Positions 2,716 to 58,900 of a DNA stretch of 64,000 nt are shown here, piece after piece (position 1 is the stretch's first letter; each line of letters opens with the position of its first letter). Origin of the DNA: an uncultured Candidatus Saccharibacteria bacterium (GTDB lineage: Bacteria; Patescibacteriota; Saccharimonadia; Saccharimonadales; JAGQNK01). Location of the stretch: positions 32,746 through 96,745 of the forward strand of contig CAZWRG010000002.1 of the NCBI GenBank assembly GCA_964636355.1. The letters run 5' to 3'. The notes beneath the pieces were generated by a model that had not been told where the DNA came from, made no database searches, and worked only from the letters and a program-made list of their open reading frames with translations. The translations under genes and the position numbers were made by a program.

Positions 2716-3279
2716 ATGAGTTTCTATATTTTGATCTCGTTGCTTCCACCTTTATTTCTTAATATTTGGCATATAATTTTAGTGACAAGGCCGCGAACGA
2801 GTCCTAGGCCATTGACCATCAGTGAACATGCTTCAGAGAGTCAAGCCACATTATTGGCTCATCGCATATTGCATTCGCTGCCAATCATTATGTTAACGCC
2901 CTTTATTGTATGGTTTTTAATCCCAAAAGGGCATATCTATGCTGCAGTGCTGCTTTTTAGTGGTTCATTTTTCGACTCAATAGAGGTTTTAACGCTGAAT
3001 AAGCATTCGGCAGAACTTGATGGCCCTATAAATCTACATAAAGTAACTGCATGGATAATGGCTCTAAGCTACATGGGCTACATGCTTGCAATTAGCAGGG
3101 TAGCGGAAATTAATCCATATATTTATGGTCTTTTCTTTTTGGCATGTGTGCTGCTCATGGTTTTTGCGATTAAGGGTATGTTCAAAGCCTATTTTCTCTT
3201 TATGCAGACTATATTTTTTGTTTTAATGTCCCTTGTAATATTGATGGCCCACATTGCTTTATTGGTAAAAAGTGCATGA
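2716..3279 (+). CDS. hypothetical polytopic membrane protein
   Basis: 187 aa with several long hydrophobic segments and no recognised motif. Tightly packed between rnhB and the yraN-like gene. Confidence 0.5.
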   Translation: MSFYILISLLPPLFLNIWHIILVTRPRTSPRPLTISEHASESQATLLAHRILHSLPIIMLTPFIVWFLIPKGHIYAAVLLFSGSFFDSIEVLTLNKHSAELDGPINLHKVTAWIMALSYMGYMLAISRVAEINPYIYGLFFLACVLLMVFAIKGMFKAYFLFMQTIFFVLMSLVILMAHIALLVKSA

Positions 3280-23124: not shown

Positions 23125-23171
23125 AATAGTTTTTGTTTCAATAACCTGAAGCAACTGTTTAACAATCATAT

Positions 23172-23205
23172 GCGCGAGTGGTGAAATTGGTAGACACGCA
23201 TGCTT
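23172..23205 (+). pseudogene. tRNA-Leu-like 5' half fragment (acceptor + D arm + 5' anticodon stem only)
   Basis: gcgcgagtggtgaaattggtagacacgcatgctt closely parallels 23314-23347 of the intact tRNA-Leu (tggtgRaattggtagacacgcatgc). No matching anticodon stem, T arm or acceptor 3' strand follows. Confidence 0.45.
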
Positions 23206-23313
23206 ATAGTAGAATTCGAGCACGTGCCGCCGGCACATCGTACATTTTTAAGTTATATTACTGTATGGGGATGTAATGAATTGGTAGAGTCCCTCACAGT
23301 TTAAATCCTGGAT

Positions 23314-23398
23314 GCCGGAATGGTGGAATTGGTAGACACGCATGCCTTAGGAGCATGTGCCGCAAGGCGTGGAGGTTCAAGTCCTCTTTCCGGCACCA
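23314..23398 (+). tRNA. tRNA-Leu (anticodon UAG), CCA encoded
   Basis: Acceptor gccggaa/ttccggc, D loop aattggtaga, anticodon stem catgc/gcatg with loop cttagga, long variable arm, T arm ggagg-ttcaagt-cctct, then A-CCA. Confidence 0.9.
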
Positions 23399-23963: not shown

Positions 23964-24003
23964 CTTAGGAGCATGTGCCGCAAGGCGTGGAGGTTCAAGT
24001 CCT
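23964..24003 (+). repeat. 40-nt exact direct repeat of the 3' part of tRNA-Leu (anticodon loop to T arm)
   Basis: cttaggagcatgtgccgcaaggcgtggaggttcaagtcct is identical to 23346-23385. No complementary 5' half lies upstream, so it is not a tRNA gene. Confidence 0.9.
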
Positions 24004-37111: not shown

Positions 37112-37117
37112 CCCGCG

Positions 37118-37138
37118 AGAGGGAGTGACCCTCCCTCT
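37118..37138 (+). other. stem-loop just after rpoC stop (agagggag/ctccctct)
   Basis: 8-bp stem and 5-nt loop with no T-run. A GAGAGGG/CCCTCTC hairpin theme recurs at 47238-47262. Confidence 0.5.
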
Positions 37139-42732: not shown

Positions 42733-42756
42733 TGGAATTTAGAATTCTAAATTCCA
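42733..42756. repeat. 24-nt perfect palindrome in the rpsJ leader
   Basis: tggaatttagaattctaaattcca is its own reverse complement. Imperfect complementarity extends to ~42712-42780. Confidence 0.9.
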
Positions 42757-42798
42757 CAATCCATATTCCAAATTCTAGGACGACTGAAAGGAGTCAAG

Positions 42799-43749: not shown

Positions 43750-44364
43750 ATGAAAGCATTAATTACAAGAAAGGTTGGCATGACCAGTACCATTGGTGAA
43801 GATGGTGTGGTGGCTGCTGTTACCTTGCTTTCCGCTAGTCCTTGCGTCATTACGCAAGTTAAGACCGATGAGATTGACGGCTACACAGCTGTCCAGATCG
43901 GCACCGAAGAGGCTAAAAACATGGGCAAGACTCAGGCTGGTCACTTCAAAAAATCAAAAGTTCAACCGAAGGTTGTTCGCGAAGTCCGAGTTGCTGAGAT
44001 TGACGAATCTTTGAAGGTCGGCGAATCAATCAATGTTGACACATTTGCTACTGGCGATGTTGTGTCAGTAACTGCCAACAGTAAAGGTAAGGGTTGGGCC
44101 GGCACAATTAAACGGCATAATTTTCACCGTCAGCGCAAAACTCATGGTGGAAAAGGAAATACTCGAAAACCAGGTTCAATTGGTTCAATGTATCCGCAGC
44201 ATATCTTAAAAGGTAAAAAGATGGCCGGCCAAATGGGCGCCGAACAAGTTACCGTCCGAAACCTAAAAGTTGCCTTTGTTGATCCCGAGTTAGGCATTAT
44301 TGGAGTTACCGGTGCTGTGCCTGGGCCTCGAAAAGGTATTGTTTTGATCAAGGAGGCCAAATAA
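43750..44364 (+). CDS. rplC: 50S ribosomal protein L3
   Basis: MKALITRKVGMTS...; start trimmed from 43711. GKGWAGTIKRHNF motif present. Confidence 0.95.
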   Translation: MKALITRKVGMTSTIGEDGVVAAVTLLSASPCVITQVKTDEIDGYTAVQIGTEEAKNMGKTQAGHFKKSKVQPKVVREVRVAEIDESLKVGESINVDTFATGDVVSVTANSKGKGWAGTIKRHNFHRQRKTHGGKGNTRKPGSIGSMYPQHILKGKKMAGQMGAEQVTVRNLKVAFVDPELGIIGVTGAVPGPRKGIVLIKEAK

Positions 44365-44468
44365 TGTTTCGTTTCACTCAACATCAGTCTCCAGTCTCCA
44401 GTCTCCAGTCTCTTGCGACTAGTGACAGGCGACTAGCGACTAAAACCGACCAAGGGGAGGTTTTGTAA
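44364..44468 (+). other. rplC-rplD spacer module: heptamer tandem repeats, also a 34-codon ORF bounded by TAATG at both ends
   Basis: 4x CAGTCTC (44385-44412), then CGACTAG-type heptamers (44416-44443). The ATG at 44364 shares A with the rplC TAA. The TAA at 44466-44468 shares A with the rplD ATG. Translation: MFRFTQHQSPVSSLQSLATSDRRLATKTDQGEVL. Confidence 0.6.
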
Positions 44469-46594: not shown

Positions 46595-46699
46595 ATGGAA
46601 TTTAGAATATCGAATATGGAATTTAGAATGGGCTTCAATGAAGCTATTCCAACTTCTAACTTCCAGCATCTAACTTCTGCGACTGGAAGGAGCATCTAA
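46595..46699 (+). other. rpsS-rplV spacer module: GGAATTTAGAAT repeats and pyrimidine-rich arm, also a 34-codon ORF ending in TAATG
   Basis: ATGGAATTTAGAAT occurs at 46595-46608 and 46616-46629. Central hairpin gcttc-aat-gaagc lies at 46632-46644. The stop TAA (46697-46699) overlaps the rplV ATG. Translation: MEFRISNMEFRMGFNEAIPTSNFQHLTSATGRSI. Confidence 0.6.
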
Positions 46700-47091
46700 T
46701 GGCAGTTAAAGCAATTGCAAAAGGTGTTCGCATGAGCCCACGCAAAGTTGGTGTGGTTGCTGCATTGGTGCGCGGTAAATCAGTGGCTGACGCATTGACA
46801 ATTTTAGAGCACACTCCGCGACGGGCAGCTGAACCAGTTAAAAAGGTCATTGAGAGTGCTCGGGCTAACGCTGATCACAATCATAACTATAAGGCAGATT
46901 CCTTGGTGATCACCTCAATTAGCGTCACTCCGGGCGCTAGAATCAAGCGATATCGTCCAGCGGCTCATGGCCGAGCATTGCCTTTCATGCGCCGAACATC
47001 GCATATTTTTGTAGCGGTTGATGGCGAACAGCGTGCACCAAAGAAGCCAGCTTCTAAGAAGACCGAAGCCAAGAAAGAGGAGGCCAAGTAA
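46699..47091 (+). CDS. rplV: 50S ribosomal protein L22
   Basis: RMSPRKVGVVAALVRGKSVADALTILEHTP. Confidence 0.95.
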   Translation: MAVKAIAKGVRMSPRKVGVVAALVRGKSVADALTILEHTPRRAAEPVKKVIESARANADHNHNYKADSLVITSISVTPGARIKRYRPAAHGRALPFMRRTSHIFVAVDGEQRAPKKPASKKTEAKKEEAK

Positions 47092-47285
47092 TGGGTTTGT
47101 ATGGAAAAGAATTCTGGTCTGCTGAAATGGATGCAGCTTTGGTAAATGAAAAAGTTAACAGCGCATTTAGTCAGACTTTCAATAAGGATGACAGGGGAGA
47201 GCAGCCCGACAGTCTGGCTCTGCCAGCTGACGGCGCGCTGAGAGGGGATGTTCCCCTCTCAGGAACCGAACGGAGTGAGGTGTAG
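47091..47285 (+). CDS. 64-codon ORF inserted between rplV and rpsC (coding status uncertain; contains an 11-bp hairpin)
   Basis: The ATG overlaps the rplV stop (TAATG), and the stop lies 2 nt before the rpsC ATG. Perfect hairpin ctgagagggga-tgt-tcccctctcag at 47238-47262. Confidence 0.4.
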   Translation: MGLYGKEFWSAEMDAALVNEKVNSAFSQTFNKDDRGEQPDSLALPADGALRGDVPLSGTERSEV

Positions 47286-47287
47286 TT

Positions 47288-47920
47288 ATGGGACAAAAAG
47301 TTAATCCAATTTCAATGCGTCTCCAGGTCAATAAGAACTGGCGAAGCAAGTGGTTCGCAAACAAGCGTGAATACGCTAAGTTTTTGACCCAAGATCTAAA
47401 GGTTAGAAAATTGCTGCAGGATAAAATCGGTAGTCGCGGCGCAATCAACAAGATTGACATTGAGCGTTCACCAAATCTTGTTTCTGTAACCGTAACTACT
47501 GCTAAGGCCGGTGTTGTGATTGGCCGAGGCGGCGCCGGAGTTCAAGAGCTTAAAACAGCCATTGAAAAGATTTACGGTATTCCAGTGCGTGTCAACATCG
47601 AGGAAATTAAAAAACCTGAACTATACGCTAAGTTGGTTGCTGAAAACATTGCTCATCAGCTGGAACGCCGAATTGCTTTCAGACGAGCTACCAAACAAGC
47701 GGCTGCCGCAACCATGCGAGCTGGTGCGAAAGGTATTCGTATTGAAGTAGCTGGTCGTTTGGGTGGAGCAGAAATGTCGCGCCGCGAAAAAATCGTTGAA
47801 GGCTCCGTGCCACTTCACACCCTGCGAGCAGACATTGATTACCACGCCGCCAGAGCTCGTTATCCTGGCTCCGGTATCATCGGCGTTAAAGTATGGATCT
47901 ATAAAGGGGAGGTAGAATAA
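47288..47920 (+). CDS. rpsC: 30S ribosomal protein S3
   Basis: [12 protein letters not shown]..., KH domain and [10 protein letters not shown]. Confidence 0.97.
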
Positions 47921-50417: not shown

Positions 50418-50819
50418 ATGAGCACTACAACAACCGACCCAATAGCTGACATGTTATCTCGAATTCGAAACGCGATAGCAGTTAACAAAACCGAGGTTAG
50501 CTTGCCTCATTCTAATGTAAAAGAAGCAGTTGCTAAGCTTTTAGAGCAATCAAAATTCATTGACAAGGTGAATGTTGAAAAAGCTGAAGTTGGCAAAACA
50601 TTAAAGATTACAATCAACCAGCCGCAAACCAACGCCCGAATAACCGAGATTAAAAGGCTGAGTAAGCCTGGTCGACGCTACTACAGCAGCGCCGATAAAA
50701 TCCCAACAGTTATGCGCGGCCGCGGAATCGTCATCGTTAGTACCAGCAAAGGTATGATGACTGGCGCCCAAGCCAAGAAAAATGGTGTTGGCGGCGAATT
50801 AATTTGTAAAGTTTACTAA
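50418..50819 (+). CDS. rpsH: 30S ribosomal protein S8
   Basis: DPIADMLSRIRNA...GIVIVSTSKGMMT. Confidence 0.96.
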   Translation: MSTTTTDPIADMLSRIRNAIAVNKTEVSLPHSNVKEAVAKLLEQSKFIDKVNVEKAEVGKTLKITINQPQTNARITEIKRLSKPGRRYYSSADKIPTVMRGRGIVIVSTSKGMMTGAQAKKNGVGGELICKVY

Positions 50820-50911
50820 AGGAGTAGAAAGTAAAAAGTAGAAAGTTCATAAAGTAATAACTTTGAAACTTTTAACTTGATAACTTTATACTTTCGACTA
50901 AAGGAGAAAAG
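50820..50911 (+). repeat. rpsH-rplF spacer module: AAAGT-repeat arm / ACTTT-repeat arm imperfect hairpin, non-coding
   Basis: gtagaaagtaaaaagtagaaagttcataaagt ... aactttgaaacttttaacttgataactttatactttc. It ends cgactaaaggag before the ATG at 50912. No start codon and no open frame. Confidence 0.7.
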
Positions 50912-51451
50912 ATGAGTCGTATAGGAAAACTGCCAATCGATATCCCGAGCGGCGTGACAATCACTGTAGACCCTGAATGGATTACAGTTTCTGGGAGCAA
51001 GGGCACCCTCAAACAATTCACCATGCCAGGCGTAACAGTCAAGCAGCAAGACAACCAAATTGTGGTAACTCGTGACAATGACGAGCCAGTTAATCGATCC
51101 AAGCATGGGCTGATGCGGACTTTAATCAACAATATGGTTGTTGGTGTTAGCCAAGGCTTTGAAAAGAAACTTGAAATCAATGGTGTTGGTTTTAGGGTTG
51201 CAATGGCCGGCAATGGCTTGAAGCTAAACCTTGGTTTTTCTCATGATGTAAATTATGCTTTACCAACTGGCATAAGTGCCGCCGTGGAGCAGAATGTAAT
51301 CACCATTTCCGGTATTGATAAGCAGCAAGTTGGTCAAGTTGCTGCTGAAATTCGAGCCCTTAAGAAGCCTGAGCCATATAAAGGTAAAGGAATTAAATAC
51401 GTTGGCGAGCGAATTATTCGCAAGTCTGGTAAGTCAGGAAAGGACAAGTAA
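50912..51451 (+). CDS. rplF: 50S ribosomal protein L6
   Basis: [16 protein letters not shown]...PEPYKGKGI. Confidence 0.96.
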
Positions 51452-58339: not shown

Positions 58340-58747
58340 ATGGCCGAGAAATCAACTCATTACCATTATGCGCTTGGCCGCCGAAAAAGCTCCACAGCCC
58401 GGGTTCGATTGATGAACGGCAAGGGTAAAATCACCATCAACGACAAAGATGTGGTTGAATATTTTGATGGCAGCAAGTCAATTCTTCATGAACTGCAAAA
58501 ACCATTTGCAGCGCTGGAGCTTGAAGCCAAAAAATTCGACATCAGCGTGGTTGTTAGTGGTGGTGGTCATGCCGGTCAGGCTGATGCAATTCGACTTGGC
58601 ATCGCTAAAGCATTGGCCATCATGAACGAAGACCTTAAGGGAACTCTTCGGCGAGCTGATCTGTTGGGCCGCGATCCAAGAGAAAAAGAACGCAAGAAGT
58701 TCGGCCTCAAGGGCGCCCGCAAACAACGTCAGTTCACCAAGCGTTAG
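58340..58747 (+). CDS. rpsI: 30S ribosomal protein S9
   Basis: GRRKSSTARVRL...GGGHAGQADAIRLGIAKAL...KARKQRQFTKR. Confidence 0.96.
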   Translation: MAEKSTHYHYALGRRKSSTARVRLMNGKGKITINDKDVVEYFDGSKSILHELQKPFAALELEAKKFDISVVVSGGGHAGQADAIRLGIAKALAIMNEDLKGTLRRADLLGRDPREKERKKFGLKGARKQRQFTKR

Positions 58748-58749
58748 TA

Positions 58750-58777
58750 ATGAGGGAACCGATATAGGTTCCCTCAT
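58750..58777 (+). other. 11-bp perfect stem-loop right after rpsI
   Basis: atgagggaacc-gatata-ggttccctcat. Confidence 0.7.
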
Positions 58778-58790
58778 CGCACCAAGAAAA

Positions 58791-58821
58791 GAAACCCCAG
58801 TAAATGGGGATTTCTTTATTT
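58791..58821 (+). terminator. intrinsic terminator closing the ribosomal supercluster
   Basis: cccca-gtaaa-tgggg core with A/T extension, followed by tttctttattt. Confidence 0.6.
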
Positions 58822-58900
58822 GGGACACTCCTTACTGAAAGTTGCGAGTAATTTTACCAATAAAATTTATAAAATTTCTAGGTTATAATATTCAAAATAC

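Follow-up and report, generated by a model that had tools for sequence, protein, structure and literature searches.

REP/BIME repeats are defined by an imperfect palindrome of 20-40 nt with a 5' GTAG/CGTC tag, by more than 100 copies per genome and by a cognate RAYT, and the known operators of ribosomal proteins (r-proteins) each occupy one fixed place per operon. Other short repeats are closer to the case studied here, namely the conserved multi-copy triplex repeats BoxC/TM-ECO of enterobacteria and cyanobacteria, whose function is unassigned (PMC4666352), and the Rickettsia palindromic elements (RPEs; PMC10969869). In this study we analyse a 64,000-nt stretch of DNA (hereafter the window) from an uncultured Candidatus Saccharibacteria bacterium (assembly GCA_964636355.1, contig CAZWRG010000002.1, positions 32,746 to 96,745, forward strand), which carries the S10/spc ribosomal-protein operon of Saccharibacteria (TM7) and whose closest S3 relatives are Saccharimonadales genomes, and we focus on an insert between its rplV and rpsC genes. 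By its sequence features, the element in this insert looks like a cross between the intrastrand-triplex repeats (BoxC/PIT) and the RPEs, and it lacks defining features of each, namely the loop length and sequence of the triplex repeats and the single conserved peptide of the RPEs. With a probability of about 0.6, we take the insert to be a copy of a dispersed, probably mobile, structured repeat which is tolerated in tight operons by means of a bridging open reading frame (ORF) that preserves translational coupling.

The insert at the rplV-rpsC junction

The insert lies on the forward strand between rplV (L22; 46699-47091, Pfam Ribosomal_L22 PF00237, 7.9e-35, stop TAA at 47089-47091) and rpsC (S3; 47288-47920, KH_2 and Ribosomal_S3_C). 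The expectation of a first-pass annotation, made from the letters of the window alone, that these two genes normally abut is borne out by comparison of the junctions: of 33 Saccharibacteria genomes, 30 lack the insert and have a gap of -1 to +3 nt, and the other three have unrelated spacers of 61-111 nt; in other phyla the gap does not exceed 30 nt. In the window the genes are separated, as that annotation had also read, by a coupled ORF of 64 codons (MGLYGKEFWSAEMDAALVNEK..., 47091-47285), of which the ATG overlaps the rplV stop (TAATG) and the TAG (47283-47285) ends 2 nt before the rpsC ATG at 47288; the other two frames are closed by TGA at 47228-47230 and 47239-47241. The ORF is served by a Shine-Dalgarno sequence, GAGGAGG (47077-47083), in the 3' end of rplV. 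This sequence and the ATG are those which belong to rpsC in insert-free relatives (..aggagnnnaagtaATGGG), and the empty junctions (L001, L002, L004, L007 and L013; L-numbers denote Saccharibacteria comparison loci or contigs, except L115-L138, which are IMG/VR contigs) read ..aggag(a/g)nnaagtaATGGG.., with the Shine-Dalgarno sequence at the same position serving rpsC.

The insert begins with a 5' spacer (47094-47192), unconstrained but kept open and with no relation between copies. It is followed by a conserved core of 76 nt (47191-47266), matched by two covariance models (R1, 97.6 bits; R2, 94.3 bits, E 8e-30), and by a tail (47263-47287) with a new Shine-Dalgarno sequence for rpsC (GGAGTGAGG, 47272-47280) and the ORF stop, the tail being nearly identical in L081, L104 and, at another junction, L085. 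The core has the layout, written as DNA, AGGGGAGAG-CA-[hairpin 1]-G-[hairpin 2], that is, a 5' purine tract (47193-47201), hairpin 1 (P1, 47204-47236) with a conserved base and a variable, covarying upper stem, the linker CGCG, and hairpin 2 (P2, CTGAGAGGGGA-TGT-TCCCCTCTCAG, 47238-47262), which is nearly invariant and whose 11-bp stem is perfect, as had been noted from the sequence. The window has a single occurrence of the pattern GAGAGGG-N-CCCTCTC, which none of 100 shuffles contains. The whole 221-nt stretch folds only mildly better than shuffles (z = -1.85), and the signal is one of comparative data, not of single-sequence fold energy. A terminator reading of this copy was rejected, neither hairpin having a T-run.

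A dispersed family of copies

On the whole, more than 40 copies of the element, about 76-82 nt in size, are found in Saccharibacteria contigs, at no fewer than nine (at least) different r-protein gene junctions and in unrelated intergenic regions. A protein search with the ORF finds eight tiny ORFs (59-77 aa) whose C-termini have the motif RGEQPDSxALPxxGALRGDVPLS in common and whose N-termini are unrelated; they are located at five junctions (rplV-rpsC, rplE-rpsN, rplW-rplB, rplM-rpsI and rplX-rplE), and each spans its junction exactly. An exhaustive profile search with these mini-ORFs, which we call subfamily 1, gives 55 clusters at 50% identity, of 35-83 aa, with the motif always C-terminal. 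Metagenome contigs scanned by DNA pattern, blind to ORFs, yield 12 true copies and five chance matches. Among the 12, two are in r-protein operons (L104 at rplV-rpsC, and L102 as an in-frame fusion to the S17 end), two more (L097 and L109) are at other operon junctions, and the remaining ones are in ordinary intergenic DNA. Copies are present between convergent genes (L096, L099 and L110, between a small membrane-protein gene and groEL; L111, before purH) and antisense between two co-directional genes (L095 and L105), and the genes that they adjoin include groEL, alaS-like, purH and ruvB genes.

The covariance model built from the pattern-scan copies revealed a second subfamily, with the layout GGGAAAAGAGCAGCCnGAG-hairpin-CCnGCGCG-ATGAGAAAAACC..GGTTTGTCTCAT. 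It is found at rplC-rplD, rplD-rplW, rplW-rplB, rplV-rpsC, rpsC-rplP, rpmC-rpsQ, rpsQ-rplN, rplX-rplE and rplE-rpsN, with up to three copies per operon (L009 and L113), and the profile of its mini-ORFs gives 420 clusters at 90% identity, all the 120 listed being of 33-46 aa. In addition, a second, diverged copy is detected in the window itself (58746-58838, reverse strand; R2 29.4 bits, E 3.7e-8), just past the rpsI stop and antisense to rplM-rpsI. Hairpin 1 of this copy (58795-58809) is terminator-like on both strands, and the copy may double as an operon terminator. As for the fusion in L102 (reverse strand, 1229-1654), the S17 protein with the element at its C-terminus has 141 aa where about 105 are usual, and it is on the start of rplN that the lengthened ORF ends.

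Rfam 15 has no match in the window at the gathering threshold, none in 47050-47330 at E<=10 and none in 11 related loci, and the known ribozymes, riboswitches, r-protein leaders, signal recognition particle (SRP) RNA, tmRNA and RNase P were set aside for want of a match there; an AGCAGCC likeness to SRP domain IV is a 7-mer coincidence. Neither Pfam nor NCBIfam has a family for the ORF or the element, and literature text searches for the element sequence and the peptide motif returned nothing relevant, the family not being found described. The location within S10/spc-type operons and the conserved structure of internal loop and hairpin might suggest an r-protein autoregulatory site, i.e. an rRNA mimic like the S8/spc or L4/S10 operators. 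The copies, however, are not at one fixed position but at many junctions, up to three in one operon, and also beside groEL, alaS-like, purH and ruvB, and no curated r-protein leader model of Rfam matches them, so we regard such a site as very improbable.

Conservation of structure rather than peptide

Hairpin 1 combines a conserved base, GC-CCG-A-C / G-A-CGG-(C)-GC (GCCCGAC / GxCGGCGC), with a variable upper stem, CAG(T)CTGGC-TCT-GCCAGCTG, which is replaced wholesale among copies (CAGTCTGGC/GCCAGCTG, GTTTGGC/GCCAAAC and CGGTCAGGC/GCCTGCCG, with AAAATG/CATTTT, AAAAAG/CTTTTT and GCTCAGA/TCTGAGC as further variants), and both-sided changes are seen at 9 of its 11 pairs. The closing pair of hairpin 2 covaries as well, between C-G, U-A and A-U. 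In a MAFFT alignment of 19 copies, seven pairs show both-sided changes and the covariation score is 0.219 versus 0.078 for shuffled alignments (0 of 500 reach it), with slid controls lower. For 25 copies, both-sided changes are found at 14 of 22 pairs, with a score of 0.493 versus 0.149, and at most 0.195 with partners slid; this second alignment is itself fitted to the structure model, and RNAalifold recovers both helices independently.

The first-pass annotation had offered a coupled ORF and a structured RNA element as alternatives. Both hold together, the hairpin being part of a conserved, covarying two-hairpin element, and what does not survive comparison is a peptide under selection. Such a peptide would be a genuine ribosome-associated small protein of 60-80 aa with the C-terminal motif as its functional part. 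It would agree with the Shine-Dalgarno sequence and the coupled start and stop of the ORF, with the constant C-terminal place of the motif in 55 clusters, with the homologous N-termini of L085 and L091 (17, 14 and 24 differences by codon position, somewhat more at the third), and with the segment S-x-EMDAALVNE that P0045, alone among the homologues, shares with the window 5' spacer. Against it, the same element is read in other copies in two other frames, giving unrelated peptides: subfamily-1 r-protein copies read GAG-CAG-CCC (RGEQPD), L097 and L109 read GCA-GCC-CGA (QGRAARQ), and subfamily 2 reads AGC-AGC-CCG (REKSS...RDEKN). It is also present untranslated in intergenic DNA. Moreover, compensatory stem changes force amino-acid substitutions (S to G, L to Q, PADG to PNAG), often with a synonymous change on the partner side, and the variable residues in the 55 clusters are those encoded by the loops and hairpin 1. 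The N-termini are otherwise unrelated, the product belongs to no known family, and its AlphaFold model is poor (pLDDT 57.7, pTM 0.16). With no conservation beyond the nucleotide constraint and no domain or confident fold, a functional small protein is improbable, and the conserved entity, as judged from the aligned copies, is the nucleic acid and not the peptide.

Relatives keep the hairpins without one fixed frame, which points to a nucleic-acid element, and yet some open frame is always kept. The 5' spacer is no more alike between copies than saturated 4-fold sites of rpsC, which fits a frame kept open without peptide constraint. An origin of the spacer as a decayed duplicate of the rpsC 5' end, to which it has no detectable similarity, was tried and rejected. 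So was a reading of the insert as a diversity-generating retroelement target, with a variable region, a GC-rich stretch and a hairpin, there being no template-repeat-like second spacer copy in the window and nearly no variable region in subfamily 2.

Bridging of operon junctions

At r-protein and other same-sense operon junctions, all copies of the element are spanned by an ORF whose first codon lies on the upstream stop or beside it and whose last lies on the downstream start or beside it. This includes the eight of eight model-found copies of subfamily 2, and L097, L104 and L109 are bridged too. The tendency was measured on L001-L033 and the window, which were picked by S3 homology alone and thus involve no ORF-based ascertainment. 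Of 384 adjacent r-protein junctions in this set, 310 have gaps of at most 5 nt; among the r-protein gaps of 40-400 nt, 21 of 25 are bridged, compared with 5.6 expected from shuffled gaps (P=7e-15), and for all loci pooled the numbers are 36 of 41 and 8.0. Bridging is also seen in inserts without the element, including the rplC-rplD and rpsS-rplV spacers of the window, and is therefore a property of these operons and not of the element. In L085, for example, two acidic ORFs of 113 aa (rplB-rpsS, 1886-2227) and 57 aa (rplV-rpsC, 2884-3057) bridge their junctions without the element, showing that these operons keep fairly long inserts of a different origin open as well. The long r-protein gaps without a bridge are the rpsH-rplF gap of the window (50819-50912), rpsN-rpsH in L005, rplD-rplW in L007, rpsS-rplV in L033 and rplX-rplE in L104, and they may mark junctions with independent downstream initiation.

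These data also bear on the idea of a strain-specific neutral insertion, raised in the first-pass annotation, or a chance one, with an open frame and a hairpin that arose by accident. In its favour, L001, the closest reference genome, with an S3 88% identical, has no insert. Nevertheless, the idea is refuted by more than 40 related copies with covarying stems, by a hairpin pattern never reached in the shuffles and by bridging far above chance, leaving it practically no probability.

A different class of junction inserts is found in the window (44364-44468 and 46595-46699), L003 (2939-3001), L005 (508-588) and L033 (2889-3001). They consist of short tandem repeats (CAGTCTC x4, GCGACTA x3, GGAATTTAGAAT x2, CTAACTTC x3) ending in GCGACTGRAAGGAGC and TAATG, are exactly ORF-bridged in the window and in most other cases, and have no covariance-model match to the element. 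The insert at rplV-rpsC had been suspected to be a larger member of the rplC-rplD repeats on account of a stretch ccgacagtctgg. The stretch exists, at 47206-47217, one base from where it had been placed, and it is the 5' strand of hairpin 1, in which the CCGAC base is conserved in the family and AGTCTGG belongs to the freely varying upper stem. Kinship itself is not supported, since both covariance models, run with filters off, find no match in 44364-44468 or 46595-46699, and these rplC-rplD and rpsS-rplV repeat spacers were rejected as family members; the feature that they have in common with the insert is ORF bridging.

In its survival within translated sequence the element may be compared with the RPEs (PMC10969869). 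These too are small palindromic repeats of reduced genomes which persist in translated sequence with the frame open, as the element does at every r-protein or same-sense operon junction, and their 'conserved peptide' is likewise a consequence of the nucleotide repeat; their in-frame fusion to host genes has a counterpart in the element-S17 fusion of L102. However, RPEs are of about 100-150 bp and lie mostly within host ORFs, whereas the element mostly forms a separate ORF exactly spanning a cistron junction, is read in any of the three frames, depending on the copy, where each RPE family encodes a single conserved peptide, and lacks a long terminal palindrome. The hosts are also unrelated.

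Mirror tract and candidate triplex

The tract AGGGGAGAG is an exact mirror, not a complement, of the 5' arm of hairpin 2, GAGAGGGGA. When the tract (47193-47201) is laid against this arm (47240-47248) and the opposite arm TCCCCTCTC (47252-47260), nine of nine triplets are G.G-C or A.A-T. Positions 1-7 preserve the mirror in nearly all of 28 copies, with an identity of 0.82 in mirror versus 0.41 in direct order. Subfamily 2 shows a joint shift of tract, arm and opposite arm from GGG/GGG/CCC to AAA/AAA/TTT, and where the top pair is G-C in place of A-T, the tract has G in place of A (L095, L098 and L111). The G/A co-changes concern mirror positions 5-7 and 9, plus position 4 in a third type. The sole frequent substitution in the tract is A to T, always opposite an A-T pair and allowed by the antiparallel motif; the triplets between tract and arm are thus the antiparallel purine-motif set (G.G-C, A.A-T and T.A-T). 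The tract ends 2 nt before hairpin 1, hairpin 2 starts 1-2 nt after it, and the hairpin-2 loop is of 3 nt.

A mirror tract with such co-change would be the signature of an intrastrand purine-motif triplex with class I block order, and on these comparative grounds we give its formation roughly even odds. In that event the conserved part, selected as nucleic acid, may act as a single-stranded DNA fold with the tract in the major groove of hairpin 2, and hairpin 1 would be a mere linker between the two. The functional species, if the triplex forms, is likely single-stranded DNA, because purine-motif triplexes do not form in RNA (PMC4666352). Two points count against this fold. The distance between the tract and the purine arm is about 36-38 nt (47202-47239) with hairpin 1 inside it, far longer than in described motifs; and the co-changes amount to perhaps 3-4 independent evolutionary events. 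G-T mismatches are no commoner than A-C (5 versus 10), so neither the folding strand nor an RNA fold is identified by mismatch type. On the opposite strand (e.g. 47193-47262, reverse), the version of subfamily 2, which is A/T-rich, would be rich in U.A-U and might in principle arise in antisense RNA; the A-to-T substitutions of the tract favour the purine motif on the top strand.

The element may be compared with BoxC/PIT/TM-ECO (Hoyne et al. 2000; Holder et al. 2015; PMC4666352), which it resembles in several features: these are highly conserved, multi-copy short repeats with G/A-rich and C/T-rich blocks on the same strand, a purine third strand antiparallel to the purine arm of a hairpin and a 9-nt stem, located in intergenic regions, patchy among relatives and without an assigned function. 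The order of blocks in the element (reverse-Hoogsteen tract, purine arm, pyrimidine arm) is that of class I in PMC4666352, and the three blocks defining a class I ITxF (stem of 6-15 nt with at most one mismatch; PMC4666352) are present. The tract-arm spacing, on the other hand, exceeds the short loops of that definition (1-6 nt, or at most 10 nt in Hoyne et al.; PMC4666352). TM-ECO is of class II, CCCTCNCCC-N3-6-GGGNGAGGG-N3-GGGNGAGGG with loops of 3-6 nt, and the element differs from it in block order and sequence and does not fit the TM-ECO/BoxC consensus. Further differences are the long linker that sets off the third strand and is itself a covarying hairpin, the Saccharibacteria hosts, the bridging ORFs at operon junctions and the long target duplications of some copies. 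A third strand that changes with its duplex across copies is seen here, in few independent events, and this co-change between tract and arm gives comparative support for a triplex.

Probable mobility and possible host function

Direct flanking duplications of 21-55 nt are found at four copies. In L004 it is 34 nt long and abuts both ends of the core, with 21 nt perfect (CATTAAGGAGGCCAAGTAATG) and then the first 13 nt of rplD (z 12.5); in L109 it is 55 nt, made up of the 3' end of the upstream gene and ATGAG (z 21.9); in L097 it is about 45 nt (z 11.1), and in L009, at rplE-rpsN, 23 nt (z 4.8). Since such a duplication copies the stop/start junction, both genes are left intact and the start codon of the first copy opens the bridging ORF. 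For this ORF to end on the duplicated stop, a repeat period of 2 mod 3 is needed (116 nt in L004), and therefore bridging is selected and not automatic. Set against S3 similarity, the occupancy of rplV-rpsC is patchy: L001 (88% identical) is without the insert, while L081 (86%) has it.

We propose that the element is, or was, mobile DNA which lands beside gene boundaries and duplicates 21-55 nt of its target, so that the end of the upstream gene and the start and Shine-Dalgarno sequence of the downstream gene would stay intact. In operons with overlapping stop and start codons, the survivors would be readable inserts only. In the window, the former rpsC start and Shine-Dalgarno sequence would now open the 64-codon frame, which crosses the element and terminates 2 nt short of the new rpsC start; ribosomes coming off rplV would be carried over the insert, unwinding the hairpins, and would reach rpsC by termination-reinitiation coupling. 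Bridging would probably also prevent polarity and melt the hairpins, with the peptide as a by-product. A bolder version, in which a new mobile element of the Candidate Phyla Radiation (CPR) moves as a single-stranded DNA hairpin-plus-purine-triplex, heals junctions by its 21-55-nt duplications and has seeded hundreds of de novo mini-ORFs in all three frames, selected for nothing but the relay of ribosomes, is speculative and on balance unlikely.

Several observations weigh against our proposal. At the window copy, no duplication of the flanks is detectable (z 1.9). None of the copies was found to have a transposase, reverse transcriptase or integrase nearby and no partner gene is common to them, duplications of 21-55 nt fit no known transposition chemistry, and no full copy is found among IMG/VR viral contigs. 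Between genomes whose rpsC 4-fold sites are only 26-40% identical, i.e. saturated, the core is 83-95% identical; at the orthologous membrane-protein gene/groEL locus, where flank identity is 63-95% across the comparisons overall, the core is 93% identical between L096 and L099 with flanks at 73-74%, and 100% between L099 and L110 with flanks at 87-95%. In addition, the r-protein-operon copies (at least 25) are all in sense orientation, though antisense frames are open too, which is not predicted for a pure DNA parasite. The core is thus more conserved than a decaying selfish insert would be, implying host function or gene conversion; from the sequences, it would be either under purifying selection in place, or continually renewed or gene-converted.

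The chief rival is for this reason a domesticated or native cis-acting element kept in place by selection, for example a site for r-protein mRNA processing, stabilisation or protein binding, or a DNA site for a chromosome protein. The conservation and the sense orientation just described would be as expected from it, as would the operons of L009 and L113 with three copies each, and the near-invariant linker and tract suggest sequence-specific recognition. It has difficulty with the lack of a fixed position (at least nine junctions, and 30 of 33 genomes without an insert at rplV-rpsC), with copies between convergent genes or antisense to their neighbours (L095, L105 and 58746-58838 of the window), and with target duplications that look fresh and point to recent insertion. 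No Rfam model, those of r-protein leaders included, matches it, and translation across the element would melt an RNA structure. We hold this explanation to be rather unlikely, although compatible with a mobile origin.

The dispersed, probably mobile repeat also differs from the other described classes of short repeats. With REP/BIME and ERIC it has in common short, hairpin-forming, transcribed repeats between genes or cistrons, in either orientation and often at gene 3' ends, but there is no GTAG/CGTC tag, and two different hairpins with a purine tract take the place of one palindrome, some copies being ORF-bridged and flanked by duplications of 21-55 nt; no RAYT-like ORF was found near the copies. 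Transposable elements of the miniature inverted-repeat type (MITEs) have a similar non-autonomous size and multiple copies, and direct repeats flank some copies of the element as well. Unlike in MITEs, terminal inverted repeats are missing, the 5' end AGGGGAGAG being a mirror of the 3' hairpin arm and not its complement, and the duplications are of variable length, 21-55 nt, as opposed to a fixed 2-10 bp.

Two further candidates were tried and rejected. One is phage carriage: the 24 IMG/VR viral contigs L115-L138 have, in several conserved phage contexts, a lone palindrome TGAGAGGGGR-N3-5-YCCCCTCTCA without tract or hairpin 1 and not the full element, showing that hairpin 2 alone does not identify the family. 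The other is a strict replication-strand bias: the two window copies are in opposite orientation under a GC skew uniform across the window, which excludes a simple replication-strand rule.

Significance

Hundreds of very small 'hypothetical proteins' in Saccharibacteria r-protein operons (420 and 55 clusters) are explained as read-through of one nucleotide element. Junction inserts in these operons are nearly always open, in any frame and regardless of what they encode; nature has here performed an experiment whose outcome suggests a dependence of downstream r-protein cistrons on ribosomes that arrive from upstream. The bridging ORFs would then be obligatorily translated and unconstrained in sequence, and could be raw material for new microproteins. 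Target duplications that are long and of variable length, with no enzyme recognisable, point to a route of insertion in CPR bacteria which is as yet uncharacterised. If the duplications do heal overlapping gene junctions, they would let the element colonise the most conserved and tightly packed of bacterial operons; and if the triplex is true, the family, with its defined 76-mer, would give comparative evidence for a biological intrastrand purine triplex, the first with support from co-variation.

Other observations in the window

A hairpin directly after the rpoC stop (37117-37138; GAGAGGGAG...CTCCCTCT), without a T-run, had been likened to hairpin 2 as agagggag...ctccctct at about 37118-37138. 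It does exist, but the likeness is weak and not significant (9.4 bits, E 0.18, to hairpin 2 only). Just upstream of rpsJ, a 32-nt inverted copy (42744-42775) of the rpsS-rplV spacer repeat (46598-46629) is found 3.8 kb off, with 88% complementarity. Finally, each half of the tRNA at 23314-23395 has a repeat close by (23170-23203 / 23312-23345, and 23346-23385 / 23964-24003), the 3' half recurring as an exact 40-nt direct repeat 618 nt downstream; the arrangement resembles the scar that a small integrated element leaves at its attachment site, or a duplication of the tRNA.

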